A DNA stretch of 64,000 nucleotides from Protoeuglena noctilucae. Its lineage: Eukaryota. A program made the position numbers and the translations under genes. A model generated the notes under the pieces. The model was not told the DNA's origin. It saw only the letters and a program-made list of their open reading frames with translations, and made no database searches. This document shows positions 11,301 through 47,233 of this stretch, one piece after another (the stretch's first letter is position 1; each line of letters begins with the position of its first letter). The DNA lies in NCBI GenBank assembly GCA_958009085.1, contig OY253685.1, positions 434,001 to 498,000 on the forward strand, written 5' to 3'.

Positions 11301-14300
11301 CGTCGCGACCATGCGTGGCCACGCCCATGCTGCGCCTCGCTCAGCAAGACATCTCATCGGTGTCGCCAAGCCCATTGCAATGCTTCTCTCCACGCCTCTT
11401 CAGGTCGAGGAGCACGCCCAGCGCGCCGTGAAGCTGCGGGCGGAGCTAGACGCGGAGCACCGGGAGCGGGTGGCCGTGGACGCGGAGTTGAAGGCGAAGA
11501 GGGCCCGCGTCGACGACCTGGAGGCGCAGGTGAGAGGCAGCCAGGAGGACAAGGGCAGGGGTGGCATCTGGCACACGCGCCTCATCTGTGTGACTGCCCT
11601 CACACAGCCGCCTCCGCTCGCCATGCTGTCGGGCCTGGCCATGCCCGTGTGCCTGCACCTAGCTATGCTGATGTGCCTTGGCCGCAGGTGCGCCACGCGG
11701 CCCAGGAGCTCAGCGAGTCGCGGGCCAAGGAGTCGGAGGCGCAGAACGCGCTGACGGAGGCCAGGGAGACGGCGACGAGGCTGGGGAGGGACCTGCGGCT
11801 GCGGGACAAGCGCGTGGCTGACCTGGAGCGCGACGTGTCGGGGCTGGCTGCTTCCGTGGAGGAGCACCGGGTGCGCGCGGAGCGGCTCCGGCAGGACCTA
11901 CAGGCCGCGGAGGGCGAAGCGAGGAGGCTGGCGGACGCCTTGGCGGAGTGCACGACCAAGAGGGAGGAGGCGGAGGCGGCGGCAAGGAAGGCGTCGCAAG
12001 AGCTGGGGGCCGCCAAGCACAGGCGAGGGGCGGAGCGAGATGCAGCCACACAGCCATGCGTCTTTCTATACTTGGTGACTTGACCCGACTTGGTTCTCTT
12101 TAGCAGGCCACGGCTCGCTACTCTGCCTTATGACAAGCGCTGCCTACTCGTCCCTTCCACGCAGCGCCCTCACGATGGAGGTCAAAGCGGACCGTGCTGC
12201 GTTCGAGCTCCAGTCCATGCGGCAGGAGCTGGAGCGCGCCAACGACGCCGGGGCCAACAGCGCCGCGCTGCTGGAGGCAGCGACCAAGAAAGCCGCCGAC
12301 TACGAGGTCCGTGGGCCGCTGGCTGGCACAATGGGGAGGCGTGCCTTGGCATCCCAATCACGCACCATGGTTTTGTGCATACCATGCACAGGCGCTCGAA
12401 CCTGGCCCTCCCCGCTGCACCCACTCGTCGCACACCCCTCGTGTCCCTCCCTCGTCTCCCCCGCAGAAGCAACTCCTGTCCATCGACCGCGCCACTTCCC
12501 GCGCCACCACGGTTGCCAAGGCCCTGGCCGCACACCCCCCGGGGTCCCGCGTGGTCCCGCGGCTGCCGGTGCACGGCGTCGAGTCACGTGACCCCCCCGA
12601 CGCCCTGGTCGGCGAGCGGACGGTGGCGGCGCTGGAGCGCTTGGAGGGCCTGGCGACCGAGTACAGCGAGCGCATCTCGGCGGACGCGGTCAAGCTGGCG
12701 GAGGCGGCGAGGGCCAGGAACGAGGTGGTGGAGCAGCTGCAGGTGAGCGGGGAAGGCATGGAGCAGGCGCGACTGCAGGAGCGATGCCGAGACTTGCCGT
12801 GTACGTGCAACCACCAGTGGTGCTCCACTCGCATTAGTCCATCTCAGACAGCGATAGGGGCAGTGATAGGGGCACATGGTCATTGTCGCCGCAGAATTGC
12901 CGGGAGAAGTGCGCCAAGGCCCAAAGGGACGCGGAGACTGCGGAGCAGGAGCACCGGAGGGCGGCATCGGCGCTGGCGGACGTGCGCGAGGAGTGCCGCG
13001 GCCTGCGGGCGGAGGCGGGCGTGCACCTGCAGCAGCTGGGGGACCTGCGTGCACGGCTGGCGACGCTCGAGAAGCAGCTGGGCGGCCTGGCGGGTGACAA
13101 GGCGTTCCTGGAGCAGTCCCTGGCGGTGGCCGGAGAGGACCGCGCCAGGCACGCCGAGGAGGCGCGGACGCTGCGGGGGGACCTGGAGGCGGCACGGCGG
13201 GGCCTGTCCCAGCTGGAGGGACGCGCGGTTCGGGCGGAGGTGGAGCTGGCCGCGTGCCGCCGCGACCTGGGCGCAGCGCGGGAGGCAATCCGGGAGCGGG
13301 AAAGCGAGGTGGGCGCGCTGCGGGGCGCGCTGGCGGCGCGGGAGGGCGATTTGGAGGACGCCAGGGACCGGGAGACGGTGCTGTCGGCCGAGGCAGAGAC
13401 GTGCCGGCAGCGGCTGTCCGAGGCCCGGCAGGCGGCGGTGCGGGCGCAGCGGGCGGCAGCTGCGCTCCGGACCCGCGTGTCTGGGACGGCGGGGCAGGCC
13501 GCGGAGGGCCCGGCCGTCGCGGAGGCGGCGCTGGTGCCGGTGGGGTTGGCGTTGGGCGACACGCCGGGGGTGGTGGACGTGGCGGCGGCGGTGGCAGCGG
13601 CGGCGGAGGACTTTGCCCACGCGGCAGAGGCGGCGCGGGCGGCGATGCTGCTGGCACGGGACGAGGCGGGCGAGGCGGCGGCGGCTGCCAGCGCGGCGAC
13701 GGCGCGCGCACTCGCGGCGGAGGAGGCGGCGGACTCGGCGCAGAGTCAGGCCGCGTCACTGCGTGCGGAGCTGGAGGCGGCGCGCGAGGAGTCGCGGCAG
13801 CTGCGGGGGGCGTGCGAGGAGGCGGTGGCGGACAACCGTGCGTTGCGTGCGCGGGGGGAGCGTCTGAAGGAGAAGCTGCGCGCGCTGCAGTCGGAGCGCG
13901 CGGCCGTGGCCAGGGCGCTGGAGGGGGCGGAGGAGGAGCTCGTGCGGGCGCTGAGGTGAGGGGTTCCAGGGTCAGGGGTCTCGCCTTGCAGTGCCGTGCT
14001 GTCCGGTCCCTGCCTGTGCCTGCTTAGGGGTTCAGGGCTGCAGCTTGCTCCCCGCCCCTGTCTGTCTGGGATTCCTTTCATCAGTGCCACTCGTCATCGC
14101 TCTCACGCAGGCACGCGGAGGAGTTGGAGGAGACGCGGGGCCGCCTGACTCGTGAGCTGGAGGAAGTGAGGGAGGCGAAGGGCCGTGCCGTGGCGGACCG
14201 GGAGGAGATGGCTCAGGAGCTGCGGACCACGCAGGGACTGCTGGACACGACGAGGGAGGAGCTCGAGCGCCAGAGCGCGGCGGCCACCCGGCTGCGGGCG

Positions 14301-20476: not shown

Positions 20477-22700
20477 TCACGCCTCCCCGGCCAGCTTGCG
20501 CAGCTCCCGCGCCTCGTGCTCCGCCTCTCGCAGTCGGCGCTTCATGCGTGCCATGAAGGCGTCGAACTGGGCGATCGACTCATCCGCCGCACGCCGCTCG
20601 CGGTCGCGGGCCTCCTCGCTACGGCGCGCCTCCAGCGCTTGCAGGAGCGGGCTCGCCGCGATCCCTGCGCCACGTTGCGTGCCGTGGCGCCGGAACACCT
20701 CCCGCGCCAGCCCCGCCAGCGTGTCGGCCATGTCCGCCAGGTCGCGCGACCGCTCCTCCAGGCACCGCCCCATCCGGCCAAAGTGCGCCCGGAGTCCCTC
20801 GACCTCCCGCGCCCGGCTCTCCCGCTCGCGCTGCAACGCCCGCACCTGCCGCGACAGCTCCTTCGTCGGGGACACCGCCCCCTCCGCCCGCGTGCCCCGC
20901 ACCCCCGCCTGCACCACCTGCCCCTCCAGGCCGGCGACCCTCGCCTCGAGAGCACGCAGCGCGGCGAGCGCCGACTCCTCCCGCTCGACCCGCAGCTTCC
21001 CCGCCGCCTCCCCCGCGGCCTCCGCCGCCGCCGCCGCCTCACGGGCCCGCATCTCGGCCGCTTCGGCGCGCCGCTCCGCCCCCGCCGCCTCGTCGCGCGC
21101 GGCCCGCACGTGCTGCGCCAGCTGCCCCAGCATATCCGCCACCTCCCCTCGCACCGACGTGCCCACCGCCTCCGCCACCTCCTGCGCCTCCCGGGCTCCT
21201 TGGGCCGCCGCCTCCGCACCCTCCTCCCGCAGACGCGTGACGGCGCCCGCCAGGCGCTCGGCCCACTGCCGCTCCGCCCGCTCCGCTGCCCGGCGCGCAC
21301 GGTCAGCCCGGTCCTGCGCCCCCTTCACCTCCGCGGCCACCGCCGCTTGCAGTGCAGTGACCTGCTCCCCCACGTGCGCCGCCACCGCCTGCTTCACCGC
21401 CGCCACGCGCTCCGACACGTGCTGCTGCAGCTCCCGCCGCAACGCCGCCGTCGCCTCCCGCGCCTCCTCGCGACCCTCGCGTGCCTCGTCCCACGCAGCA
21501 CTGGGGTCAAGACCCGGGCAGCCACTGGTCAGGGCAGCCACGTAGCAGAGACTTCGCCCACAACGTTCTCGTTCTCTTGAAACACCTCTCGACACCCTCG
21601 AGAGACGCAGCATGAAGCGCCGGCATTCGCGACTCGCCTGGCTTGTCCCCCCGCGTCAGCCGCGGCACGCTCCAAGGCACCCAGCGCACGCAGCGCCAGC
21701 TCCAGCCGACGCTCGGCCTCGTCTACGCGCGCCGCGACGCCGTCCGCCCTCGCCACGGCCTCCTGCGCCCGCGCCCCGGCCTCCTCGGCGCGCTCCCCCG
21801 CCGCTGTCGCCACCCTCCTCCCCGCCGACATCTGCTCCGCCATGTCCATCACGCGCGACCGCGTCGCCTCGAGACCGGCAGCCTGATCGGCGACCGCGAC
21901 GCCCAAGGAGTCCAGTTGGCCCAGCACCTGCGGCCCGCAGCAGCCCTGGCTTTCAGCGCATGTACCCGGGAGTGGCGTGGGGGGCGACCCAAGCCAGGCG
22001 TTGAAATGCGAGACACACACGCAGGCTGACCTCCACGGGCCCTTACCTCTTCCATCCGGCCGTCCTGGTCCCGCTCGCGGGCCGCTGCTGCCAGCTGGTC
22101 CGATACCCACGCGCGCAGCTGCGCGGCGGACGAGCCCGCGTCTTCCTGGCGCTTGGTCGCTCGCGACATCTCGTCGCGGACCGCTGCGATGGACGACTGC
22201 GTGTCCTCGTGCTCCTTGGCCACCAGCTGCACTTGCGCGTGCAGCTGCCCAAGAGCCTTGCGCGCCGCGTCGAGCTCGGACCGCACGTCCAGTCCACGCG
22301 CAGGCGCCAGCGCGTCCATCTCCTGACGAAACGCAGAGGTGAGGTCCGCGACTTGCCGGGCGAGCTCTGCGAGGCGGGAAACATGTGTGCCATGGCACGC
22401 CCGCCCTGGGCCAGCATGCCTCGCCCGATACACGTGATAGATGGAGAGTATGTCAGGTAAAAGCGGCATCGCGCTGCCGAGAACGTTGCATGAGCGCTTC
22501 CTCGCCGGCGATTTTCACGTCTTGCTCCCGCACATGCGCCTCATGCTCGGTAACCAGCGCCAGGACGCGGTTGAGGCGGTCGATGGACGGAGAGGACGGG
22601 ACAGACGGGGGCGCGCCGGCCCGCGGAATCGTCCGTGAGGCTGCGCGCTCGGCAGGGGGCAAGCCATGTCATGACAACGTGGGGGAGAGACGCCGCACAA
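20477..22700 (-). CDS. Coiled-coil protein of unknown function, multi-exon
   Basis: ORFs 20477-21613, 21529-22398 and 21849-22469 supply A/E/R-rich heptad exons with compatible junctions. Probable GC-AG intron 22367-22505. Start uncertain. Confidence 0.7.
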
Positions 22701-23371: not shown

Positions 23372-26108
23372 ATGCTCGCAGCCCAGGTCGTGGTGCCGGA
23401 GGGAGATGGGGACGACGGCCGGCCCGACATCATTGGCTTCCTGACGGAGCGGAGCCAAAAGATCGAAGCGCTGAAACAGGAGCTTTCGGTGCTGAAATTC
23501 AAGTGAGATCGAGGGGAGATTGGATGGAACCGCGATGTCGTGCCGCGATGTCGTGCCACGAATCGAGAGAATTTCTTCCTCTGTGCGTCGGCGATGGGTC
23601 TCTCTTCCTGTGCGCAGGAGTGAGGACCTGACGCGGCTTCTCGCGGCGGAGCAGGATGCCAGCGCGCGTCTCCGGAGCCGCCTGGCTGCGGCAGAGGACC
23701 AGCTCACGCACCGGCGGTCGAACGATCCAGGACAGGACCGGATGGACAAGTTGCTTCGATCTGAGAGGTAGAGGCTGCTCTGGCCCAGGCACCACGCTAG
23801 CCAGGATCCAGCAGGGTGCGCTGAGATGGGCAGCTGAGTAGGCTAAGCGGGCACAGACCCTTCACCAGCACCTCTGGTCGCAGCGAGCTGAGGGCGCTGG
23901 CCGAGCGCGCACAGGTGGCCGCAGAGGGTCGCGCTCAGCGAGCGGAGCAGGAGGCCCGCGCGCTGCGGGATGCGCTGGCCGAGCGTGAGGCGGCCCTGGC
24001 GGCGAGGGAGGCGACAGAGTCGACAGCCGCGGCGGATGCGCGGGTGGCTGCGGCGCGGGAGGAGGCGGCGCGGGAGGCGGCGGTGGCTGCGAGGCGCGCG
24101 GCGGCCGCGGAAGCTACGGCGGCGGGGGAGCGGGCGCAGCGCGTGCGTGCGGAGGCGGCGGCGGCGTCTGCAGCGCAAGAGGCCGAGTCGTGGGCGTCCC
24201 GAGCATCGGCGGCCGAGGTGGCGGCGGCGCGGGCGGAGGCGCGCGCGGCGGCAGCGGAGGCAGCACGGGGTGCCGGGGAGGGGCGGAGCGAGCTCGAGGC
24301 TTTGGTGGGAAGTTTGCGAAAGGAGATGGAGATGCGGGATGCTGAGGTGGAGGAGGCTCGGCGCATCCGGAAGAAGTGGGCCAACACCGAACTGCTCAGG
24401 TGAGCGCCGGTCGCACGGCACTGGCGAAACCGCATCGATGCTCCAACAATGGCTGACGGGCTCTCCCGGTCCGCCGCGCAGGGAGAAGCTGTCGGCGGCG
24501 GAGGCCCGCGCGGCGCAGGTCGAGCCGCTGCTGGCGCGCGTGGTGGCTCTGGAAGCGGAGGTGGAGCAGGCGCGACGGTCGCTGAGGCCGTGGGAAGAGG
24601 CGGCGCGGGCGGTGGGCGCCCAGGAAGCGACGCCGGCTGGTGAGGCTTTTGGTGGATGCAGCGCGCAGTCGACGCGACGGGATGCGAAGTGGGGAGAGAC
24701 GCGGACGGTGCGTCTGGCTTGCACCAGGGCTGCACCGTCCAACATCCTTGCTGGTCCCCTGCTTGCAGGCGTGCGCGGCGTCGTGGCTCAGAAGGACCGA
24801 CTGCTGCGGGCTGCCCAGGAGACCGTGGGGCGCCGCGAGGAGGAGCTGGCGTCGGAGCGGGCGGCGAGGGAAGCGGCGCAGGCGTTGGCACGAGAGGCGG
24901 AGGCACGGGCAGCGTCCGCGACGTTGCAGGCGTCAGCTGCCGAGGAGGCCGCGGCGCGGGCGCAGGCGACGGCGGGGCTGCTGCGGAAGGAGCGGGAGGG
25001 GCTGGTGGCGCTCGTCGCGACGTACGGGCAAGAGGACGCAGACGCGGGGGCAGAGAGCGCTGGGGTGGAAGGGGCGACAGCCCGGTCCAAGGCGCAGGCG
25101 AGCGAGCGAGAGGAGCAAAAGGTTGCTCGTCCTGCAGCGATGACTGAGGTGGTGCCTCGGGAGGGCGGGGACGCGTCACTCGCTGTGGTTATGCCCCGCA
25201 GGCCGCCCACATTGCCCGGCTCCAGGAGCAGTTGGGTCACAGCGAGGACCTGGCGCATTCTCTCCAGACGGACCTGGACCGGCGGGAGGTCGAGTGCGCG
25301 CGGCTGCGTGGGGCGGTGGCGGCAGCGGAGGCGAAAGCGCGGGAGCGGGAGCGGGAGGCCGCTGCGTCGACGGAGGAGGCGGCGCGCCTGGCGCAGCAGG
25401 TGGCGCTGGTCGAGTCCAGGCTGGGCCAGGGCTTGTTCGACCCAGCCACGACACGTGTGCTGCACCTGCGCGACAACCCCGAGAGCGCGGCGCGGAAGGC
25501 GGAGGCAGAGGACCGTGCCGCGCTCCTTGAGGCGGAGAACCGCGCCCTGCGCGCCCAACTCGACGCGGCGGGCACGGGCGGCGCGGGGGCGGCGGCGGCG
25601 GCGGCGGCAGCCGTGGCGGACGCCGAGAAGGTCGTGGCGGAGCGGCGGGTGCGTGAGGCCGAGAAGCGGCTCCAGCGGCTGCAGGAGGTGTTCAAGGATC
25701 GCATCGGGGCGTTTAAGGAGGCCTGCGCGGTGCTTTTCGGGTACCGGGTGGAGATGACGGCCGAGGGGGCGCCGGGAGCAGGGGAGACGGTGTGCTTCTT
25801 CACTTTGCGCCCCCGGCTGGCCAGCTCCCCTGCGAACGTCCTCACCTTCCGGTTCAGGGCGCCTTACAAGGCCGCCGACATGGAGCTAGGTGAGCAGAGG
25901 GCGCGGGTGGTGCTTATGGATGCAATGGGGCACCCTTGAAAGGGAAGGCTGATGGGCACGCTGTGTCTGGCACCCACCCGCAGTGCCTTCGGACTTCAGT
26001 AAGCTGCACCAGCGGGAGGTGGACACCTTCATCGTCCGATTCAAGAACGTCGCCGCCTTCACGGCCAACCTCACCATGGACCTCTTCCAAAAGGAGACGC
26101 AGACGTAG
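23372..26108 (+). CDS. MAD1: Mitotic spindle assembly checkpoint protein MAD1
   Basis: Long coiled coil, then the Mad2-binding region TRVLHLRDNP, then KRLQRLQEVFKDRIGAFKEACAVLFGYRVEM, ending VDTFIVRFKNVAAFTANLTMDLF. Confidence 0.92.
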
Positions 26109-26547: not shown

Positions 26548-27852
26548 CTAGCTAGCTTGCCAACGCCACCAGGCGCTTAGATCAGTGGATGTGGCCATAG
26601 CAGGGACAGCTGAGTCAGTCCTTCTCGCCTTGTACATGACGGAGGTGATGTACTTGGACCGATACCTCCGCGTGAGGCCCAGGATGAGGGCGCGGTTGTG
26701 CTGGCTGCCCATGGCCTGCCGCTGGGCGTAGAGGTGCTGCAGGATCACGTGCTGTGGCCGGGGCAGCGAGGTGGTCGGGTCGAGGGCGGGCGGGACGTTG
26801 AGGAGCGTGAGGTGTAGGTGCTGGGGCAGCTGCGGGGCATCCTTCGCAAAGTCGTCTTGCGTTGGGAGAGGGCGGTTGTACGACTCGGGAGGAGACAGCG
26901 GGGGCTCGAATCCCTCGAGGCCGTCGAGGTTCTCTGGGACGAACTCGTGGACCTCGATGACGTTGTTGATGTTGCCCATCTCGTCGTACATGGCTGGCTG
27001 GTCGGGAGCGTACCGCCATACGCCATCCACTGCAGCCAAGGCCAGGGCTCGTGTAGGAGCGGGATCGACTTGGCGCATGCGTGTCTGCAAAAGGGTGGGA
27101 AAGACAGCGAGGCTGATCTTGAGCCAGCTCGCCTATGAACTTGTATTGGTAGACGCCGGGGGGGAGGAGTTTGACGATCGTGAAGTCCCGCCCGGAACGC
27201 TGCAGCGGCGTCCGCGAAGACCAGTTGTCGAACGAGCCCTCCACTTCCACATGCTGGCCCCCGTGCGCCTGCGGGGACGGGTCGCGGGCGCCCTCAAACG
27301 TGCCCGCGGCAGGCCCCGCGTTGTGCCACGGCCGCTGCCCCGCGCTTGCGCGTCGCCGCGCCCACCCACCCACACGATGACGGTCGGAACTAACATGGGC
27401 TGCGCGGGCCACCCCGATACGCCCTGGAACTCCACCGAAGGCCTGCGGGCGAAGCGTGCGCGCGATCTGCTTAAACTTCGGCATGAAGCTTTATTCCTCC
27501 ACTTACGCCCCCGATTGGACATGACTGTTCGATAATGGACCGACAGACGGCGCGGATGCCGCCACTGGCCGCGCAGCGGTGGGCGCTCGCCTGCCCGAAG
27601 CCGGCGAAAGGCCCCCAGCCGCGGTGGGGTCCATGGAGCCTTGGGGATTGAAAGACTGCGACAGCGGGAGCGATACGGTCAGTCTGGCTCGTGAGCCGCG
27701 TCACGAGCGATGGACGGCGAGCGGCGGGACCGCAGCCCCAGCCCCCGCACCATGGGCGAGCCTGCCAACGGCGACTGGCCCGGCGTGGGCACGCCCGACG
27801 TCTCCCCTCCGTCATGACCCCGTCCCGAGGCCCTCCCCGCCGTGTTTCCCAT
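26548..27852 (-). CDS. SnRK1/AMPK beta regulatory subunit
   Basis: N-terminal MGNT (myristoylation-type start). CBM48 domain [47 protein letters not shown] domain [39 protein letters not shown]. Confidence 0.95.
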
Positions 27853-28120
27853 CCTTGGCTCTCCGAGAGCAGAGTCGCAACCCCAAATGAGCCCAAGCTG
27901 CCGTTCGGCGCTTCGATGCAGGTGGTCGCTGTCAAAATAAACCAATTGGCACGCGACGGAGTGATGCTGACCAGGCCTGCGGGCTCCTTCCGGGCTTCTC
28001 GTCCAGTCTGACCTGACCACAGCTCTCCCGAAGCAAAAGCGGCGACTGAAATAGCCTGCCGCCTCATCGACATTTGCAGCTGTTGAGTCGTGGGAGACGG
28101 CGCTTGCTTTCGACGCCCCA

Positions 28121-28887
28121 ATGGTGGGCTCCTGGACTTTCCCGGAGTTCCACAGCTACCCTCCCTTTTACACGTGAGCTGATGGCTGGAGCAGCACTCC
28201 GCCTCATGGGGCGGTCGACCTGCCCAGGATGCGGGCACCCTGCCGTCGTGGGCCGGCCGCTTCCTCCTTGGCATGCCCCGTTGGCACCTTCGACGCCGAT
28301 TACCGGCGCTGGGAGGCACCGGGAGACTCCCGACACTCTCCATGCGACGCGCGGGACTGCGTTGTAACTGCACGTACGCCCCCTCGGCCCGCAGGTTGCA
28401 GCCGAACCCCGACAGTCGGCAGAAGCAGATTGCGCTTTGGAGTGACCTCGTGCTCGCGTACTGCCGGCAGCATCGCGTGATCACGCTCTCTGCCACGGGC
28501 CAAGAGGCGCCGGGCCTGTTTGAGAACCCCTCCGTCGCCCGGACGCTGGACGCCGCCGCGCGCGAGGCCGTCATCGACTCTCTCGTGGCCCAGAAGAGGG
28601 CGCGCTGGCTCCCCGCCGGCAAGAAGGCCCAGCCGCTGCGCGTGCTCGTGCTGTGGCGGTCTGTCGAGGACTGGGCCCAGGAGCTCCTGCGGTGGGCGCG
28701 GTCCGTGGGGCTGCAGGGCTCGGTCGAGTCGCTCGACGAGATCATCGACGGCGCCGCGTCCGCCGGCACGGAGCTGCACGGCATTGACCGGGAGCTACTC
28801 GTTCTCGCCATCCGTGCCCTCGAGTCCCGCGGCGCCGCGACGCTCTTCACGTCCGACGGGGGCGCCGAGGGCGTCAAGTTCGCCTGA
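28121..28887 (+). CDS. VPS25: ESCRT-II subunit VPS25
   Basis: [42 protein letters not shown]...GVKFA*, with the PPxY/F-TLQP start and GVKF end typical of the family. One intron, 28174-28394. Confidence 0.95.
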
Positions 28888-28961
28888 GTCGCACGCGGGC
28901 CGCGCGCACGGCCAAGCGCGGTCCGGGCGGAGCCCAGGCCTGCGACAGGCCCAGCCCCGCA

Positions 28962-31917
28962 ATGCCGAACGATGAGGCCACGACTCCGCCGGGGGACGAC
29001 GACCTCCCTCCCGCGCTGGCCTCGTCGGTCTTCGGGTCGCCCGCTGTGGACCGCTCCCCGCCGTACCTGGACGCGCGGCGGGGCTCTTTGGGGGACCTGG
29101 TTTCGGTGGGGGAGGCGTGCGCGGTGGGCACTCGGTGGGAGCAGTGGCGGCGCATCTACCCGTGCGCCCTCTCCTCGTTCCCCAACGGCCTCTCCTCCGC
29201 CCTGCAAGGGAAGCGGGTGGTGCTTTTCAGCGATTACGACGGCACCCTGGCCCCAATCGTCCGCGACCCCGACCAGGCACACATGTCCGAGCCGATGCGG
29301 CGCGTGCGTGAGTGGCCGCTCGCTGCCGCGCCATGGTGGCTACTGGGTCATTCTCTAGTCACTACCAGGCCCTGTGTAGTACACAGTGCGTGCTAGCACG
29401 CCTGCGCCTGTCTCTTTCGTGTGTCCACGCAATGAGGTGCCGTGTGGATGGACGCACTCGTGTTGCACCACACCACACCTCCCCGCTGCTCGTGTCCCTC
29501 CGCAGTCAACCTGGTGTCGCGTCTCTTCCCCACGGCCATCGTGTCGGGGCGCGCCAGGCACAAGGTCGAGGCGTTTGTGCAGTTGGACCACCTGATGTAC
29601 GCCGGGTCGCACGGCCTCGACATCGCGGCACCCACGATCGGAAACAACGGCGCCAAGGGTGAGGACGGTCACGCATTGGTTGCCCACGACTGCACGCATG
29701 CGCATCAACACATCCACACACTCCTGCGGACCTCGCCCTCTCTGCCGCGGCGTTCTTTGCGTTTCGTGACGCACTCGTCGCTTACCCTACCCCTAACACC
29801 ACCCCGCCCGCCCCCGCAGCGGCCCGCATGCTGTCGCACACGCCGGCGCAGCACTTTGCGCCTGTGATGGACGCCGTCTTTGAGGGGCTCCGGCAGCGCG
29901 TCAGCTCCGTGCCCGGGGCCGCGGTCGAGCACAACCAGTTCAGCGTGTCGGTGCACTTCCGCAACTGCGCCGAGGAGGCCTTCCCTGCAGTGCTGGCGGT
30001 GAGCATTGCTGCCAGCCACACCGTACGCATGCCCACTCCGCTGCTGCGTGGCGCCCACACAAGACGCGCTGCCTGCTGCCCCTTGCCTGGCCCTCTCAGC
30101 TCTCCGCTCAGCGCACCGCGTGCCGCTGTTCGCAGATTGTGGAGCAGGAGCTGCGCCAGCACAAGCACCTGCGCCTGTCGAGGGGGCGCAAGGTGATTGA
30201 GGTCCGCCCTGAGCTGGACTGGGACAAGGGGCGGGCGCTGCTCTACCTCCTGCGCCTGATGCAGCTCGAGGACGATCCCTGCGTGGTGCCCATTTATCTG
30301 GGCGACGATCGCACGGACGAGGACGCCTTCCGGGCCGTCGGGGAGCGCCGGGGGTACGGCCTGCTCGTGTCGTCGGTGGTGAAACCCACGGCCGCGCACT
30401 TTACGCTGCGGGAGCCGCGGGAGGTGGAGCAGTTCCTGCGGATGCTGGCAGAGGTGAGCCGCGCGTGGCGGGGATCGTCTGTGAAGCCACCTCACACGTG
30501 ACACGGCAGAGGCCTTGCGGACGTTTGGGGACCAAAGCGCATGTGACGCTGCCACCAGCGTGGCCCATTAGCGTGGTGCTTTACTAACTCGGTAATCGTC
30601 GCGCCGGTCGCAGTGGGGCATGGACGGGGACCGCAACCCGTGGCTGACGGGGGAGGGCCTCTTGGCCAGCATGGCAAGGGGGCAGGAGGTGACGGCCGCG
30701 ACGGCAGACCTGGTGCAAGGCCACGCGCCGCGGGGCGTACCTCGCGCCGTGAGCCATAGCGGGAGCGTCGCGGCGTCTATCGGGGGCGGGTCGACGACCG
30801 ACGGGTGGCTGGATGGGACGGGGGCGGCGTGGGGACTCTCAGCCGCAGCGGGGCCGTCCCTGCACGGCAGCATGGGATCTCTGGGCCTGGCTGCACATGC
30901 CGACAGGGAAGGGCAGGCGGGCGCGGGACCTGGCAGCTTTGGCGCGACGTGGTCAGGGCCGGTCGAGTCCACAACTGAGGGCTCTCTGTGGCGGCAGGGG
31001 TCGCTGGGGAATGGGGCGCAGAATGGGGCGGGGGCGCAGGCAGCGGGAGCTGCGCCGGAAGCTTCGGTGGGAATGGGGTCGCAAGAGGGTGGGCCCGAGA
31101 GCGCCAGCAGTTCATCGGACTTGGGTGAGTTGGATGTCTCACATGCGACGCATGCAATTGCACATGTGCTCTTAACACTTCACCGCATGCGCCAACCACC
31201 CCGTTTGTCTCGGCCGCCTTTGCAGTTGTGTTGTGGCGCCCGGGGTCGTCGGAGTCGATCGCGGCCCTGGCCGAATGCGTGCGGCAGGACGCGGCAGCCG
31301 CGCTCAAGGCGCCGCCAGCGACCGACACGCCCGGCTCGCCCACCTCGCACGCCAGCGCGGGGGCGGGGTATGGGGCGATCCCGGGTTCACCCCAGCCCCA
31401 GGTGGCCCAAAGTCCGGGGTTCCTGCAGGGCCTGGCTGCGAGTGACCGGCTGGGGGTGCCGGCCCCGTTACGCGCCGAGGGGTACGGGGTGGGCCCGTCC
31501 ACGAGCCGCCACCGCCTGGCCATGGCGTCCGCGCGGCGCAGCGCGGACTGGGGCGCGCGGCCGGTCAGCGACAAGGCGCAGACGGTGGGGGCGGAGGAGG
31601 CGGGGACGCCGGGGGTGTTGGGGTCCGCCACGTCGAGCTTGTGGGGCTCTGACGCGGCCGGGACGGCGGAGGGGAGCGAGGAGGGCGCGGGGCGGCGGCG
31701 GCAGAGTGCCTGGGCGGCGGGGAAGGGAGGCGGGCCGGGGGGAACGGGGTCAGCAGGGGGCAGTGGTGATGGGGGCGATGATGAGGACGGGCTAGCGCGC
31801 TCGGCCTCGGACACCGCGGGCCTGGAGATGTCCAGAGGGGTGTCGGGAGCTGGTCAGCGGGGAGTGTCTGTGGGACTGCGCAACACGCCCCGGCGCGCCC
31901 CGGGGCCTGTGGTATGA
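28962..31917 (+). CDS. TPP: Trehalose-6-phosphate phosphatase (HAD family) with a long low-complexity C-terminal extension
   Basis: Motifs [59 protein letters not shown] and [12 protein letters not shown]. Confidence 0.93.
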
Positions 31918-32124
31918 GGCGCTTGTCCTCATAGCACCATGGTGTGAGGCGCTTCTAGTGCCCAATAGTAGTTACTGGCTACGACCCGTGGACCTCAGTG
32001 GTTTGAATGGGGTCTTGGCGCACATTTGAACACACTCGGCGTCATTGGGATCGCCCGGCTGTCTCACGACCATGCAAAAAAGGGCGTAGATAGACAAGGA
32101 CACTTCGCAACGTGTCGTTGTCAT

Positions 32125-35100
32125 CTACCACATCTTCGCGCGCTGCCCTGGGGATCGCGCATGTCCCCGCCTCTGCTGCACCCACCGCTCCAGCGCCCGG
32201 GTGCCCAGAGCACAAGCCGTGTCTTGCGCCAGGTCCACCGCTGCGGCATGCGTGGCTGTCGACAACGCACTTGCCACCCGCTGCGACCACCACGCGTCAG
32301 GATCCGCACCGGCGTCCCCTGTGCGACTTCCCTTGTCCCGACCACCGCGATGGATCCGCAGCCAATCGCATGCCTCTGCCATCGCAGCGAGGCGCCCCTG
32401 CAGGGTAGACCACGCCTCCTGCGGATAACATCAAACAACAAAACCAAAATGGGGTCCAGTTGCGGTCCAAATGGGGTACATGTGGCTCAGTAACCACACA
32501 GCATGGTGTGCGCCTCACCAGCCTCTCCACCAACCCAGCGGGAGACTCTCTCTCAGGCTGCACGGACACCACCCTGGGCCAGCGACCCTCCCGGGATTCG
32601 ATCCTTTCCCCTGGCAGATCTTTTCCCATGGGACCTCCGCGTTCCAACCATGTCGTCTCCTTCCCCAGGTAACCAGCACCGCCACCGCCCCTTCCCACCC
32701 GCGTCTCCGCACCCGCCCCAGCGTTGTCAATGCCGCTCGCCCGCCCAGTCACAGCTCCAGTCGCGGCAACCCTCTTCTCCACTGCCACCACGCGCCCACG
32801 GCCTCCTCGCACCCCATCGTGCCCCGATGCCCCCACATCCCTGCCCCCTGCAGAGTCATCTCTACGCACCCCGCCCACATGTTCGTCGTCGTTCCCGTAT
32901 CCGTTGTCTGTCTTGTCTGCTTCAGGGGTAAGCCTGACGCGGCTCCCGCCAGTCACCGGCCGCACCACTGCCCCCACGTCTGCAACCTTGACTGCAGCGG
33001 CCAGCAGTGGCGCAGGAGCAGACCCCGACGATGCCACCAGAGCTGACGACACCCCGCGCGATGGCAGCGGCTTGCCGTGACCCATGGGAGTGGCGCAAGG
33101 GCTCTCAGACCCATCCCTTGGAGGGTCGACACGGTCGCTTCCCTCATTTAAGCCATCGCTGTCCCCACCACCATCCCGGCCCCCACTCTGCCCACTCCCA
33201 CTGTCAGCATGATGCACTTCGCTCCCACTGTCCCCACTCTCCCCGCCCCCATCGCCCTCACCCTCCCCACCACCTCGGCCCTCCCCCCCCTCACTCCCAC
33301 GCAGCCCATTCCTCGGAGTCTCATCACATGCATCGTCCGACTCTTTTGCACTCCCACGTCGTCGCGCCTGGTCCCATGGCCCCTCCTCTCCCAATGCACC
33401 CTCGCACTCCGCCAGTCGCGCCCCTGCCGTCCCCGTCTCTGTCGCACTGCTACGCTCCGCTCTGCGGTTACAGTGCGGGACCAGACATCTCAACACTCTC
33501 CTGAGCAGCACTCCCGAACAAAATTAACGTGCGCCCGCCAGCTGTCCCATGCCACGCCGGCCCCCACCTGCGCTGCTTGCGCAAAGCGCGTTTCTGGCGC
33601 TGACGCTCCGCGGCGGCGTCCGCCTCGGCTCTCTTGGCCTCTCGCTCCTGCGACCAGTGTGAATCGAAGCAAGCATCTCCCTCTGTGCCCGGCTGACGCC
33701 TGCCACACAACTTGCTGCCAAACCCTGCACAGCTCTGACCAGTTGTCTGCTGTGTACCGCATGCAGTCGACCCGTCTCTCACCTCTTCTGCGGCCATCAA
33801 TTCTTTGAAGGCTTCCTCTGCCCTCCTCGCCCTCTCTTCCTCATCTTCCTCTCCCGCATGCCCCCCTGCCACACCACCCTTCACGCCACCCCTCGCCCCG
33901 TCACCCCTGTCACCCTCGGCCAATTTTCCCTCTTTCTTGCTCCGCAGCCGCTCCCTCGCAGCCTCAATGCGGCTCTTCCGACTTGCAGATGGCTTCTTAC
34001 CGCCCCCATCCCCGTCCGCCAGCCCTCGCTCCCTCGCCCGCTCCCTCCCAGCCCCAAACGCCGTCGCCCACGCAGCGTCCAACGGAACGCCCCCCTCTGC
34101 CGTCACCCACGTCGCCTCTTGCGTGGTCACGGGCCCGGGCACCTCGTCAGCCACCCCAACGCCCTGCCCTCCCTCTTCTGCACTGCTACGCACCTCTACC
34201 CTCGCCAGCCGCAGCGACGGGGGCACGGCGCGCAGAGGGGGCAAGCGAGAAAGAGCGGAGGCGTGCGCATCGAGGGTCCCAGACGCAGCGAGGTCGTTGG
34301 GAAGGAGGGCCGCCTTGACGGGGAGGTGGACGGTGACGGAGAGGCGAGGCCCGCTGTCGGCTGAGGGGCCCCGAGTGATGCGCAAAGGGCGAAGGGAGTC
34401 GAGGAGGATCAAGGCCCGGGGCGGGGATGACCCTGGGCCCTTGCCCAGACACGCCAGCGATGTGGACACGACCTGGGCCAACGAATGGGCACCTTTGCTG
34501 GGCTGGCGCTGGTAGATGAGGGACTCCGCCTGCAGTCGCCACCAACAGGAGTAGTGGTAAAATGGTAGGGGCCATGCGAGGCATGGTGCACATGCGTTGC
34601 ACGCTGCGTGTGCGAGGGTGCAATGTGCACCTTGCAGCGGCTGCAGCGTGTATGCAGAGGTGTCACTGCGGAAACTAGCCATGCACCACGCAGCGCAGTG
34701 CCTCACCCAGGGTCCCATGAGAGCGTTGGTGAGGACGAGGCCGACATTGGGGAGGTGGTACTTGCTGGGCCCTTTGGAAGACTGGTCAGCTTTCAGCCAC
34801 GCGTCGAGGGAAGGGCCGACGTCGTGAGGCACGGCATCAGCAAACACCACGCCGCCCACCACGGCACACAAGAGGGCGAGCGAACCGTCGGGCCAGGGTG
34901 GGACGTCGTCCTTCGTGGGAGCGCGGCAGGCCTTCGGAATGCGGCACTCCAAAGAGACGGCCAGGCGCCGGACTGCGGGGGATTTGGCGCCGGGTTTGTC
35001 GATTAAAAAACTCCTTATCGATGAAACCATGTTGGCCGTCCATTGAGTGGGCGAGCCAGCCTGGATTCGCCGCCAATGCTTGGGCCCAGGTCACCTGGGC

Positions 35101-44241: not shown

Positions 44242-47233
44242 ATGACGCGCAGCAACGCGGCTGGGGCCGTCCCACGCGAGCTCCGCGCGCTTGGCGGGCG
44301 GGCTGCCCCTCCGCAGGACAGGTGTGCGGCGCCTGGGGGATCTGCAGATTCCACAGATCTTCTGCTTCGACAACAAACTGGATGGTGCAAAGTGCGGCGC
44401 CAAGTGCATCGTCCGCGACGAGATGCACTCTGCATCATGACGCAGACTGCCTTCCCCGCTCCGCCTCCGCAGCGATGAAGGCCATCGTCGCACGCGCCGA
44501 CGCATATGCGCTGCTACTGAGCCGCCAGCAAAAGACATCCGCGGCCAAGGAGCTCCTGTCGCGAAAAGCCCGCCCCAAGCCGAGCGCCCAGCAACCCGGC
44601 CCCGCCGCTCAGCCGCTCCTTTACGCCTCATAGATCGTCATGCGGATGAGGAGATGAGCGATGCTGAGGGAGGTGGTGCGAGCGACGGCTGTGGGGCGCC
44701 TGCGGGCTGGGAAAACAGGAGCTGTGACAGGAGCGGCGATAGCGGCGGAAGCAGCAGTGACGAGGACAGCGGCGAAGAGGCGGAGCTGGAGCCTGCCGTC
44801 GACAAAGAGGGCCGGAGCGCGAGCGCGGGGCTGCTTCACTCGCGCGCGGACGTGGTGGACGACCTGCGGCGATCGTGGCTCTTTGCAAGCGTGGTGCACT
44901 TCTGCAATGCGTTCAAGGTGAGTCGGAAGGGCGCAAGAGCGCATCTCCTCGTGGTCCATTGCCGTCGAACGACCCCATTGCAACTCGGTACCATCATCGC
45001 AGGCAACCCTGGACCTCCCCGTCTCTACCGGCGCCGACCGCCTCGAGCAATCCTTGCTCTGTCCCGACGCGCATCCCACGTTCCTGGCGCGGCTGCACTT
45101 GAGGCTGGTGGCGCCCGACGGGGGGATAAGCATGGACGAGGCTGGGTGGGAAGAGCGTGTGAAGCGTGCGTGGGGGTCGGTGTGGCGAGGGTTTGCGGAG
45201 GAAGACGTCATGTATGGCAAGTGAGTCGTATTGGTGCAAGGACAGGTGCAGTGAGTGAGAAAGCGATGCGTGAGTGGCTCTGGCGGATCCACCGGGGCGC
45301 CCTGGCTGGGCCGAGCATGGCTGCCCTGTCGTCACGTCACCACTCGCCCACCCTCGCTCTGCACCCCAGGCGCTACGCGGACCTCTCCCCCGGCGAGCGC
45401 TGCCTCGTCCTGCACGTCCTTTGCGAGCACCTGGCGGGCACTGACCCGGCGGTCGGGAGGGCACTGGCACGCGATCGACGCGCGACGGTGTCCGGGCCCC
45501 CGTCGTCCCGGGCGTCCTCACGGCGAGAGAGCGACGCCCCGCGGTTGAGCACCAAGGAACGCAGCGGCGAGGGGCCTGCGCCTGGGCCGGCTGAGTCCGT
45601 CAGATCTGACGTTTCGGAAGCAGGGGGCGCGGCGCCCGTGCTGCCCGCGCCTCTGGGGGAGGACGCAGCGGGGCGTCTGTACTACCATCTGGGTCCGAAC
45701 GAGTGCTGGGTGTTTCGGGTCGATCCGGGTGGCCGGCGCGGGCGGAGGCGGGCGGTGGGGGCGGCGGGCGGGGCGGCCGTGGGCACGGTCGAGGTGGTGT
45801 GCACCGACGCCGAAGGGTGCCGGGCGGTGGGGCGGGCGCTGGAGGGCCGGGAGTCGAGAGAGCGGGCGTTGAAGGAGCTGCTAGAGGGCCCCTTGAGTGA
45901 CTGGCTGGAGGTGGTGGGGAGGGACGTGGAGCGGCGCGCGGGGCGGGATGTGGTGAATGAGGCGGGGCCCAGCAAGCGCAGTGGGCGGCTGGCGAGGATC
46001 CAGGCAGAGGCGGAAGCCAAGAGGCGGGCGGAGGAGGTGAGGGGGATGAGAAGTACGACTGCTATTAATCTAAGTGGGGTGGTTGGTGCTTGGTTGGTCG
46101 GCCCTTGTACCCTGGCTGAGACGGCAGCGGGGGAAGGTGCGGTGTCGTGGACAATGCTCCCCTGTTGCGTACCGACATCGCATCAAGTCTTTAGTGTCGC
46201 AGTCGTTATCATTTCAGTCGTTAGCATCTATCGCATATTCCATCCACAGGAGCGCTGGGAGGCCGAGTGCCGTCGTCGCCGGGAGGAGGAGGAGGGCCGG
46301 CAGACGAGGGAGAGGGAGGAGCGGCTGCGCCTGCGGGAGGCGGAGCGGGCGCGGCGGCTGGCAGAGGAAGCGGAGTGGGAGCGGCGCATGGCCGAGGAAC
46401 AGCGGAGGTGAGAGGGGGTTGGGGAGGGGAGAGGTGGGGGGGGTTCGGGGAGGGTAGAGGTGAGCAGGGACTGGCAGACGCATGGATCGTAATCGTGATA
46501 TTGTTATTACATCAGTGCGCGATGGTCATCTCAACCATTTCGACTGCTTAATTCATGACTTTCTCCCTGCCCCAGGGTGGCCAATGGCGAGGTCGGCACG
46601 GTGAATGGCGATCAGGGCGGTATGCCAAACGAGGAGCGGGGTGTCAACGGGAGCGCAGGGGATGCGCGGGCACGCACCAGCACAGCTCGGGATGAGGTGG
46701 GGTCAGCGGAGAGGCGGGGGGTCGATGGGAAGGGTGGGGGACGGTGGGGACAGGACTTTGAGGGTCTGCCGGCTGACTTGGCGGTGGTGTTTCGGAACAA
46801 GAAGAGTCGACAGGCTCGGATGGCGGAGCGGGAAGCGCGCATGAGTGGCGGTGGGAAGGACGAGGTGACTGTCGGGGTGGCGGTGGGTGGCAAGGACGGG
46901 CGGAAGGCACAAGGGGGTTCAAATCGGGATGGGGACGGCGGTGCTGTGGGTGTGTTGGCGATGGGTCCTGACAGTGGGGTGGTGATGGGCAACGGGGTGA
47001 AGGAGTTGAGCAGAGAGCGCGGGGTGGGTGGGGTTGGGCAGAGTGGGCTGGAGGCGGGGGCAAAGGTTGAGAGGGGCGAGGGCGCTGTTGAGCGAGAGAG
47101 GCAAGAGCATGTCATGAACGGGAACCATGGGGGCGCAAGTGTCAATGTAGTGAAATGCGGAGAGGCTGCCGTGGGGTCGCTTGCGCCTCTGGGCGGGCGA
47201 ACAGCGGCGGTTGGGGAGGCAGAGCAAACATGA
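44242..47233 (+). CDS. DDT/WHIM-domain chromatin-remodelling (ISWI partner) protein, DDR4-like
   Basis: DDT-like LRRSWLFASVVHFCNAF..LEQSLL..FLARLHLRL; WHIM1-like YADLSPGERCLVLHVLCEH; WHIM2-like PLGEDAAGRLYYHL. The first exon MTRSNAAGAVPRELRAL splices in phase into the exon at about 44473. Confidence 0.75.

Follow-up and report, generated by a model that had tools for sequence, protein, structure and literature searches.

The VPS25 gene and the gene for a trehalose-6-phosphate phosphatase (TPP) that follows it on the same strand are probably expressed from a single bicistronic nuclear mRNA that is read by leaky scanning. Both genes lie in the window, i.e., the whole 64-kb stretch of DNA analyzed here, which comes from a GC-rich marine green alga (mean GC of the window 0.665). 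One spliced mRNA starting near position 28087 and ending past 31917 would carry both open reading frames (ORFs). Ribosomes would load at the cap and first pass through a 5′ UTR of only about 30 nt. At the first AUG, where position −3 is not a purine, some of them would start translation of VPS25, while the others would scan on through the ORF and the 74-nt spacer, both AUG-free, and initiate at the second AUG to produce TPP. Single molecules presumably contain both ORFs with no internal poly(A) or start site, and translation of TPP by leaky scanning is suggested by analogy to the bicistronic loci of Chlamydomonas and Auxenochlorella. The parts of the locus are listed in Table 1.

Table 1. Features of the VPS25-TPP locus (positions within the window).
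Feature	Position	Strand	Remarks
Putative shared bidirectional promoter region	27924..28086		Between the SnRK1/AMPK beta-subunit gene (minus) and the VPS25-TPP unit; role presumed
Minimum 5′ UTR of VPS25-TPP	28087..28120	+	ATG-free; 25-34 nt, from contig 5′ ends
VPS25 exon 1	28121..28173	+	ATG 28121-28123, context ccaATGg; joint 28173>28395 in X1, X2 and X3
VPS25 intron	28174..28394	+	221 nt, GT..AG; five ATG inside; RNA splice joint
VPS25 exon 2	28395..28887	+	TGA stop 28885-28887; PF05871 match
Inter-ORF spacer	28888..28961	+	74 nt, 82% GC; contains no ATG, TGTAA or AATAAA
TPP exon 1	28962..29307	+	ATG 28962-28964, context gcaATGc; conserved ten-residue N-terminal motif and catalytic DYDGT
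TPP exon 2	29506..29658	+	Joints 29307>29506 and 29657>29819 (cut +1); PF02358, E 3.3e-07
TPP exon 3	29820..29998	+	RNA contig joints; reading frame unbroken
TPP exon 4	30136..30453	+	Eleven-residue motif; RNA contig joints
TPP exon 5	30614..31124	+	Low-complexity C-terminal extension begins; RNA contig joints
TPP exon 6	31226..31917	+	TGA stop 31915-31917; RNA contig joints
TPP 3′ UTR region	31918..32120	+	GC 0.547; overlaps or abuts a convergent minus-strand gene at its 3′ end

Identity of the two proteins and their host

The upstream ORF (181 aa, 546 nt) is, by homology, a subunit of ESCRT-II. Its exon 2 alone matches the Pfam ESCRT-II profile PF05871 with an E-value of 2.8e-32 (profile positions 10-138 of 138), and the protein aligns with its homologues end to end. 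The N-terminus of the model, YPPFYTLQPN, fits the PPF(Y/F)T-LQPN segment of the family, and the length fits the typical size of ~175-190 aa. A 181-aa member of its 90% protein cluster is recorded on 19 contigs.

The downstream ORF (six exons, 732 aa) is, judged by its motifs and domain matches, a trehalose-6-phosphate phosphatase of the HAD family. The HAD motifs DYDGT and GDDRTDED are found in exons 1 and 4, respectively, and the Trehalose_PPase profile PF02358 matches exons 1 and 2. Homologue searches yielded 747 proteins at E ≤ 0.001, with PF02358 present in all of the best 120 listed as well as in all homologues matching exon 4 at 50-66% identity, and exon 1 shares 58% identity over 76 aa with a metagenomic orthologue, starting from residue 39. 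Both ORFs are intact and keep their family motifs, and the two gene identities proposed in the preliminary description are borne out by PF05871 and PF02358.

Its proteins place the host in the green lineage. VPS25 has its closest named relatives in Chlorokybus and Pedinophyceae, TPP in Pedinophyceae, Chlorella, Coccomyxa, Parachlorella and Scenedesmus, and the window additionally contains a gene with a RETICULATA-like domain. The best non-self match of VPS25 was only 46% identical, and the libraries searched contained no close sequenced relative.

RNA contigs across the junction

RNA data were available as assembled contigs from four marine metatranscriptome runs (X1-X4) of one study. In all four runs the VPS25/TPP junction was bridged by spliced contigs identical to the window, each with more than 31 letters on either side of 28887/28962 (X1 record 1, X2 record 6, X3 record 11 and X4 record 18). 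The contig from X1 (1790 nt, about 28093-30759) has five introns removed and reaches TPP exon 5, and the one from X2 (1891 nt, 28087-30854) likewise runs through VPS25 and the gap into this exon. Joining of 28173 to 28395 confirmed the VPS25 intron in three of the four runs, and no splice joint, loose end, break or letter difference was listed within 28888-28961 for the contigs of any run. X4 also contained unspliced pieces (e.g., 28099-28250 and 30408-30860), which were treated as pre-mRNA or DNA and not counted as evidence for splicing. The earlier proposal of one mRNA for both ORFs is therefore supported as far as spliced contigs bridge the junction in 4/4 runs, but contigs from short reads prove no single molecule and leave room for a poly(A) site or a start of transcription within the unit. 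Since contig depth is flat per contig, the depths of VPS25 and TPP are not comparable.

Overlapping monocistronic transcripts would give the same picture of a contig spanning two genes. In this case the poly(A) site of VPS25 would lie inside or beyond TPP exon 1, transcription of TPP would start in the gap or in VPS25 exon 2, and the assembler would have merged the reads of two mRNAs. We consider this explanation unlikely. The genome is compact here, with divergent transcript ends lying about 165 nt apart, and the overlap of convergent transcripts suffices for an assembler to join them: record 14 of X3 extends from 31776 across the CT..AC intron (32418-32517) of the convergent minus-strand gene and thereby joins both genes. 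Moreover, contigs cannot show where transcripts start or end. However, two overlapping mRNAs would require a promoter within a coding exon or within the 82%-GC spacer as well as a 3′-end site within the coding sequence of the next gene, and neither a contig break nor a loose end is listed at the junction in the four runs. The junction also shows no compositional dip, unlike both real boundaries of the unit: the spacer falls within the top 2% of 74-nt windows for GC content, and the boundaries have 55-58% GC, so that base composition gives no hint of one gene ending and another beginning between the two ORFs.

The distance of 74 nt between the VPS25 stop (28887) and the TPP ATG (28962) given in the preliminary description was confirmed. 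Its statement that the gap is GC-rich and free of TGTAA and AATAAA is correct as well, but the poly(A) argument built on it carries no weight in this organism, because the 3′ region of TPP itself, up to 33000, contains neither motif on the plus strand. In the window as a whole, TGTAA is found 12 times on one strand and 10 times on the other, where base composition predicts about 17 for each.

Other routes to a second protein from this RNA were rejected. An IRES-like structure in the spacer finds no support, since the predicted fold (−41.6 kcal/mol, z −1.38) is no better than that of shuffled sequences (matched by 20 of 200 shuffles); scanning ribosomes would need to unwind this fold. Spliced-leader trans-splicing was dismissed as no loose ends are listed near 28888-28961, a weak argument given that the data are contigs, and read-through or a 2A-type fusion because a stop codon and a change of frame separate the two ORFs.

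ATG depletion, start codons and the translation of TPP

The spliced sequence contains no ATG in any frame within the 617 nt that follow the VPS25 ATG up to the TPP ATG, and the start codons of VPS25 and TPP are precisely the first two ATGs met past the 5′ ends of the contigs. The five ATGs of the 221-nt intron were all located (28182, 28206, 28229, 28273 and 28342), so that both counts of the preliminary description, including its ATG-free stretch of roughly 620 nt, hold. In 617 nt, 2.6 ATGs would be expected from a first-order Markov model, 4.4 from base composition and about 8 from the density in the window. Of the stretches of this length in the window, only 0.8-1.0% are free of ATG (mean 8.0 ATGs per stretch), and ATG-free runs of at least 620 nt occur five times on the plus and twice on the minus strand of the 64 kb. 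The TPP coding sequence, for comparison, has 25 ATGs in 2199 nt (11.4 per kb), six of them in its first 620 nt.

The VPS25 ORF contains neither an internal Met codon nor an out-of-frame ATG. When synonymous codons were resampled with the VPS25 protein kept fixed, 21-27% of the trials (P 0.21-0.27) had no out-of-frame ATG either, and among homologues of 150-260 aa only 8/129 have no internal Met (mean 3.0). Since avoidance of out-of-frame ATGs alone is not significant, the signal of depletion is mainly the Met-free VPS25 protein. Combined, the ATG-free state is estimated to arise by chance in about 0.5-1.3% of cases per gene pair, roughly 1 in 100. The AUG depletion is thus real, but only moderately significant and statistically weaker than it looks. 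With two overlapping mRNAs, a chance of this size would not be negligible over many gene pairs, and a long TPP 5′ UTR inside VPS25 would also favour avoidance of ATG; what would be left unexplained is that the ATG-free stretch starts exactly at the VPS25 start and that the removed intron holds five ATGs.

The contig 5′ ends at VPS25 lie at 28087 (X2), 28093 (X1), 28096 (X3) and 28099 (fourth run), with the closest ATG upstream of them at 27964. These ends give a weak hint at the length of the 5′ UTR, as contigs cannot define the true transcription start. The TPP frame is open from 28788. Because the spliced sequence has no ATG between 28123 and 28962 and the next in-frame Met falls after DYDGT, position 28962 is the only usable TPP AUG.

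With regard to the start contexts, position −3 is C in VPS25 and G in TPP, and the reverse holds at +4, with G in VPS25 and C in TPP. The letters at −3 are as stated in the preliminary description, which had called the VPS25 start weak, but the two starts differ only modestly in strength, since either one matches at a single key position, VPS25 at +4 and TPP at −3. In the one other start examined, that of the SnRK1 beta-subunit gene, these positions are A (−3) and G (+4).

A further alternative, which we regard as improbable and as less likely than overlapping transcripts, accepts the bicistronic RNA but has TPP translated by other means than leaky scanning, namely from a minor monocistronic TPP transcript serving as template, which would make the locus 'incompletely polycistronic', or by reinitiation after VPS25. 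The stable GC-rich spacer might indeed hinder scanning. According to the scanning model, however, reinitiation is inefficient after an ORF of 181 codons, and the complete lack of AUG across ORF 1 is a specific requirement of leaky scanning. Gallaher et al. (PMC7896298) report that mono- and polycistronic transcripts coexist at numerous loci, and a 2025 paper (PMC11892635) would allow AUG depletion to fit reinitiation in part. In the latter paper, in vivo changes of the Kozak sequence in Auxenochlorella led to an inverse relation, as predicted by leaky scanning and not by reinitiation. Leaky scanning on one bicistronic mRNA stays the preferred reading. As the stop of ORF 1 lies upstream of five exon junctions, this mRNA could be a target of nonsense-mediated decay; in Arabidopsis, read-through transcripts build up in decay mutants (PMC9768141).

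Relation to known loci and to the neighbouring gene

Bi- and polycistronic nuclear loci of green algae are known from Chlamydomonas reinhardtii, Chromochloris zofingiensis and Auxenochlorella protothecoides, with REX1-S/REX1-B as well as TOM22 and OST4 among the examples (PMC7896298, PMC11892635). The VPS25-TPP locus resembles these in having two unrelated conserved ORFs on one strand and in different frames, with continuous spliced RNA over both; it is known here from sequence and assembled RNA contigs. In comparison with the medians in PMC11892635, ORF 1 is longer (546 nt vs 357/291 nt), the inter-ORF distance is 74 nt (183/40 nt), the 5′ UTR has at least 25-34 nt (83/54 nt) and the observed/expected ratio of AUG in ORF 1 is 0 (0.71/0). 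The Kozak-like context of ORF 1 is weak in the published bicistrons, and here C occupies −3 with no purine at this position. With its short inter-ORF distance and 5′ UTR, the missing purine at −3 and the AUG depletion, the locus fits the green-algal type to which the preliminary description had likened it.

A likeness also exists to the conserved-peptide uORFs that form homology group 11 and precede TPP in angiosperms (PMC2075485), where the TPP main ORF is likewise located 3′ of another translated ORF of the mRNA. In such an arrangement, TPP output would hinge on what ribosomes do at the ORF that comes first. The angiosperm uORFs encode short regulatory peptides, whereas VPS25 is a full-length housekeeping protein, and no homology is claimed.

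Bicistrony in green algae is thus already known, but the pair of VPS25 and TPP is apparently unreported. The words VPS25, ESCRT and trehalose are absent from the text and PMC supplements searched of PMC7896298 and PMC11892635, although lists of bare locus ids in these could hide the pair. No report of VPS25-TPP was found in the literature searched, which is consistent with the earlier remark that the pairing had not been described.

Searches for the pairing in relatives did not find it conserved. The TPP exon 4 query gave 382 confirmed metagenome loci, and among the 80 listed none exceeded 57% identity. By tblastn with VPS25 homologues of <300 aa as queries, a VPS25 was found in none of these best 80 of the 382 loci (0/80), a weak test of synteny because most of the contigs are short, and none of ten long VPS25-containing predicted proteins had a TPP domain (0/10). 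The closest TPP orthologue cluster consists of P0153 plus nine more members, whose contigs are 8.6-26.8 kb long, and no VPS25 hit could be assigned to one of these contigs by its length. A single-protein query with VPS25 found no relatives in metagenome contigs, and a word-index search returned the window's own protein only. For both Pedinophyceae sp. YPF-701 and Chlamydomonas eustigma, the contig with VPS25 differs in length from that of the TPP listed.

As the phenomenon is established, the gain would be incremental. If confirmed, the locus would enrich the catalogue of green-algal bicistronic mRNAs, in which proteins of unknown function dominate, by a well-annotated pair (T6P phosphatase with an ESCRT-II subunit) and by an example from an environmentally present marine alga supported by transcriptomes of natural communities. 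It would also mean that a full-length gene upstream controls the translation of TPP, a key enzyme of sugar signaling whose plant homologues already have regulatory uORFs. Bicistronic loci are routinely mis-annotated, and a simple screen for them is to ask whether a spliced mRNA has the two start codons as its first two AUGs.

The next-door neighbour of VPS25-TPP is the gene for the SnRK1 beta subunit. In plants, trehalose-6-phosphate inhibits SnRK1. It is conceivable, but doubtful, that the locus represents a lineage-specific regulatory device in which a bidirectional promoter of ~165 nt drives both the SnRK1/AMPK beta gene and the VPS25-TPP mRNA, with the start context of VPS25 setting the split of ribosomes between VPS25 and TPP. 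Energy sensing, T6P turnover and endosomal sorting would then be physically coupled in one compact locus, and nuclear polycistrony would extend to a marine green lineage for which no report was found. The piece of the SnRK1/AMPK beta-subunit gene in X4 (record 16) stops at 27923, and the region from 27924 to 28086 is without coverage among the RNA contig pieces listed and has a GC content of 0.577, compared with the window mean of 0.665.

Gene models of VPS25, TPP and the divergent SnRK1 beta-subunit gene

The window has a GC content of about 66% and contains spliced eukaryotic genes. For VPS25 (ESCRT-II subunit), with a product of 181 aa, exon 2 alone matches PF05871 (ESCRT-II; Pfam, E 2.8e-32, profile positions 10-138 of 138), and the family segment PPF-T-LQPN is present at the N-terminus. 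Since 19 contigs are on record with a 181-aa protein of the same 90% cluster, the same model has been called by others too. The TPP (trehalose-6-phosphate phosphatase) ORF of 732 aa begins 74 nt past VPS25 and comprises six exons. Its DYDGT and GDDRTDED motifs are those of HAD-type trehalose-phosphate phosphatases; it matches PF02358 (Pfam) and is 50-66% identical to green-algal and plant TPPs among the matches listed. Its frame is open from 28788, the spliced sequence between 28123 and 28962 contains no ATG, similarity to the nearest orthologue among the matches listed starts at residue 39, and the next Met in this frame comes only after the catalytic DYDGT; the start is therefore placed at 28962 and nowhere else.

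Features of the VPS25-TPP locus and its surroundings, in window coordinates
Feature	Position	Strand	Remarks
Other ATG-free runs of at least 620 nt	12876-13645, 20730-21612, 45317-45948, 56022-56702	+	ATG scan
Other ATG-free runs of at least 620 nt	12965-14081, 23431-24206	-	ATG scan
SnRK1/AMPK beta-subunit gene	26548-27852	-	head-to-head with VPS25; AMPKBI (E 8e-21) and glycogen-binding CBM (Pfam)
Putative promoter	27924-28086		GC 57.7%
VPS25 exon 1	ATG 28121, 53 nt	+	ORF model
VPS25 intron	28174-28394, 221 nt	+	GT..AG; ORF model; splicing seen in X1, X2, X3
VPS25 exon 2	starts after 28394, TGA 28885-28887	+	ORF model and Pfam
Gap	28888-28961		GC 82%, top 2% of 74-nt windows
TPP exon 1	28962-29307	+	GT..AG ends placed
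TPP N-terminal motif	29076-29105	+	residues 39-48
TPP exon 2	29506-29658	+	GT..AG ends placed
TPP exon 3	29820-29998	+	GT..AG ends placed
TPP exon 4	30136-30453	+	GT..AG ends placed
TPP exon 5	30614-31124	+	GT..AG ends placed
TPP C-terminal extension	30614-31917	+	~330 aa
TPP exon 6	31226-31917	+	GT..AG ends placed
TPP 3' region	31918-32120		GC 54.7%
X1 record 1	~28093-30759		1790 nt, one spliced contig over the gap
X2 record 6	28087-30854		1891 nt, one spliced contig over the gap
X3 record 11	28717 through TPP exon 2		crosses the gap
X4 record 18	28755-29144		crosses the gap

Upstream of the HAD domain, TPP contains a ten-residue motif that is kept in the nearest metagenomic orthologue, P0153, and may resemble a site phosphorylated by basophilic kinases of the AMPK/SnRK1 or CDPK type. 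The Gly/Ala/Ser-rich C-terminal extension shares small conserved islands (22 residues) with P0153.

The divergent SnRK1 beta-subunit gene starts at 27852-27850 on the minus strand (A at -3, G at +4) with MGN, a myristoylation-like start. Judged from contig ends, its transcript and that of VPS25-TPP start within ~165 nt of each other. Since trehalose-6-phosphate inhibits SnRK1 in plants, the sharing of a putative promoter region by TPP and a SnRK1 subunit may not be coincidence.

RNA and base composition across the junction

Four marine metatranscriptome runs from one study (X1-X4) contain 39-58% of the words sampled from 27900-32100. Their contigs were aligned to 27000-33000 and showed zero differences from the window. 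The junction was bridged in 4/4 runs. X1 record 1 and X2 record 6 (a record being one RNA contig) extend from ~30 nt 5' of the VPS25 ATG via VPS25 and the gap to TPP exon 5. TPP introns 1-3 and 5, like that of VPS25, were spliced out in X1, X2 and X3, and TPP intron 4 in X1 and X2. The bicistronic locus proposed in the preliminary description is strengthened by this continuous spliced RNA, although the data fall short of proof, being assembled contigs, of which one over two genes does not show a single transcript. Over 31776-32764, X3 record 14 fuses the TPP 3' end with a convergent minus-strand gene across that gene's CT..AC intron (32418-32517); contigs in these data can thus join separate transcripts, and the 3' UTRs of these two genes overlap or abut.

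VPS25 and TPP might accordingly be read from overlapping monocistronic transcripts merged during assembly, a reading we regard as unlikely. No joints, loose ends or variants are listed at the junction in the X1-X4 contigs, the depth of which is flat per contig and does not convey the relative abundance of VPS25 and TPP. The reported lack of TGTAA and AATAAA in the gap is correct but does not discriminate, as the plus strand lacks both from the TPP stop to 33000 as well. TGTAA is the usual chlorophyte poly(A) signal. It occurs 12 (+) and 10 (-) times in the window, with ~17 per strand expected from base composition (our arithmetic); being no commoner than composition predicts, it evidently does not serve as the general signal in this alga, which probably uses another 3'-end signal. 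Composition is the better argument: the gap is far richer in GC than the putative promoter or the TPP 3' region, and the junction has no look of a gene boundary.

VPS25-bearing contigs start at 28087, 28093, 28096 and 28099, and the listed RNA piece of the divergent gene ends at 27923, which may place the 5' end of a transcript near 28087, with an ATG-free 5' UTR of ~30 nt (at least 25-34 nt); the nearest upstream ATG is at 27964. X4 is largely unspliced, with low-depth pieces over the locus (e.g., 28099-28250, 30408-30860), none of those listed covering the intergenic 27924-28098; these pieces look more like pre-mRNA than DNA contamination.

ATG depletion and the translation of TPP

The best-supported reading is that a bicistronic VPS25-TPP mRNA probably serves as template for TPP, which would be translated through leaky scanning past the VPS25 AUG. 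Counted from the apparent 5' end of the spliced RNA, the first AUG is the VPS25 start and the second the TPP start, which is a sharper, qualitative form of the depletion argument. The underlying observations of the preliminary description held on recounting, namely the 74-nt gap, C (VPS25) and G (TPP) at -3, five ATG inside the VPS25 intron, and none in any frame over the 617 nt that follow the VPS25 ATG once that intron is removed. ATG density is 13 per kb on each strand of the window, and only 0.8-1.0% of its 617-nt stretches are ATG-free; still, the 64 kb include seven ATG-free runs of at least 620 nt, five on the plus and two on the minus strand, several of those inspected falling in very GC-rich, repetitive coding sequence, e.g., a coiled-coil ORF (12838-13956) containing the run from 12876. 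The 2199 nt of TPP coding sequence include 25 ATG (6 within the first 620 nt), and the six introns together have 16 in 978 nt. When the VPS25 protein was fixed and synonymous codons were redrawn from local codon usage (20,000 trials), 21-27% of trials had zero out-of-frame ATG, so that their absence is not significant. The unusual part is VPS25 without internal Met, of which homologues of 150-260 aa have 3.0 on average and 8/129 none. The combined chance of ~0.5-1.3% per gene pair (product with 0.4-0.8 for an ATG-free 74-nt spacer; our arithmetic) is suggestive, not overwhelming.

Other routes to TPP translation appear very improbable. On general grounds, ribosomes are unlikely to reinitiate past an ORF of 181 codons. 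The predicted spacer fold (-41.6 kcal/mol) is unremarkable given the composition of the spacer (z -1.38), and no case for an IRES-like element was seen. Fusion, read-through and 2A-type processing are excluded by the different frames and the stop between the ORFs. A stop upstream of exon junctions triggers nonsense-mediated decay in many eukaryotes; as the VPS25 stop precedes five such junctions, termination there could bring decay, a complication for the bicistron. Read-through polycistronic RNAs build up in Arabidopsis decay mutants (PMC9768141).

Comparison with other algae and novelty of the pairing

Bicistronic mRNAs are already established in green algae; interest is added here by the two genes involved and by the putative upstream promoter region in common with the SnRK1 beta-subunit gene. 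PMC11892635 demonstrates leaky scanning on bicistronic mRNA by in vivo work in Auxenochlorella and infers it for Chlamydomonas. The medians given there (C. reinhardtii / A. protothecoides) are 357 / 291 nt for ORF 1 (VPS25, 546 nt), 183 / 40 nt for the inter-ORF (here 74 nt), 83 / 54 nt for the 5' UTR (here at least 25-34 nt, from contig ends) and 0.71 / 0 for observed/expected AUG in ORF 1 (VPS25, 0); the ORF 1 starts described there have a weak Kozak-like context, and that of VPS25 lacks a purine at -3 but carries G at +4. A relevant parallel is the conserved-peptide upstream ORF of angiosperm TPP genes (homology group 11; PMC2075485).

The synteny check gave no sign of conservation of the pairing among the homologues searched. 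VPS25 shares just 46% identity with its nearest non-self match, no VPS25 relatives were found in metagenome contigs, VPS25 was present at 0/80 metagenome loci of TPP homologues (80 listed of 382, mostly on short contigs), and 0/10 long VPS25-containing predicted proteins had a TPP domain. VPS25 and the listed TPP of Pedinophyceae sp. YPF-701 are carried by contigs differing in length, as are those of Chlamydomonas eustigma. The closest TPP orthologue among the matches listed, the P0153 cluster (66% identity in exon 4; metagenome contigs of 8.6-26.8 kb), is apparently intronless. 'VPS25', 'ESCRT' and 'trehalose' are absent from the main text and seven supplementary files each of PMC7896298 and PMC11892635, and further full-text searches returned only unrelated uses of the terms.

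Internal Met is also absent in the VPS25 homologues P0006, P0008, P0016, P0024, P0045, P0047, P0101 and P0138 of other organisms. The Ala/Gly-rich sequence of P0016 suggests another GC-rich alga, and VPS25 might be a first cistron in other organisms too.
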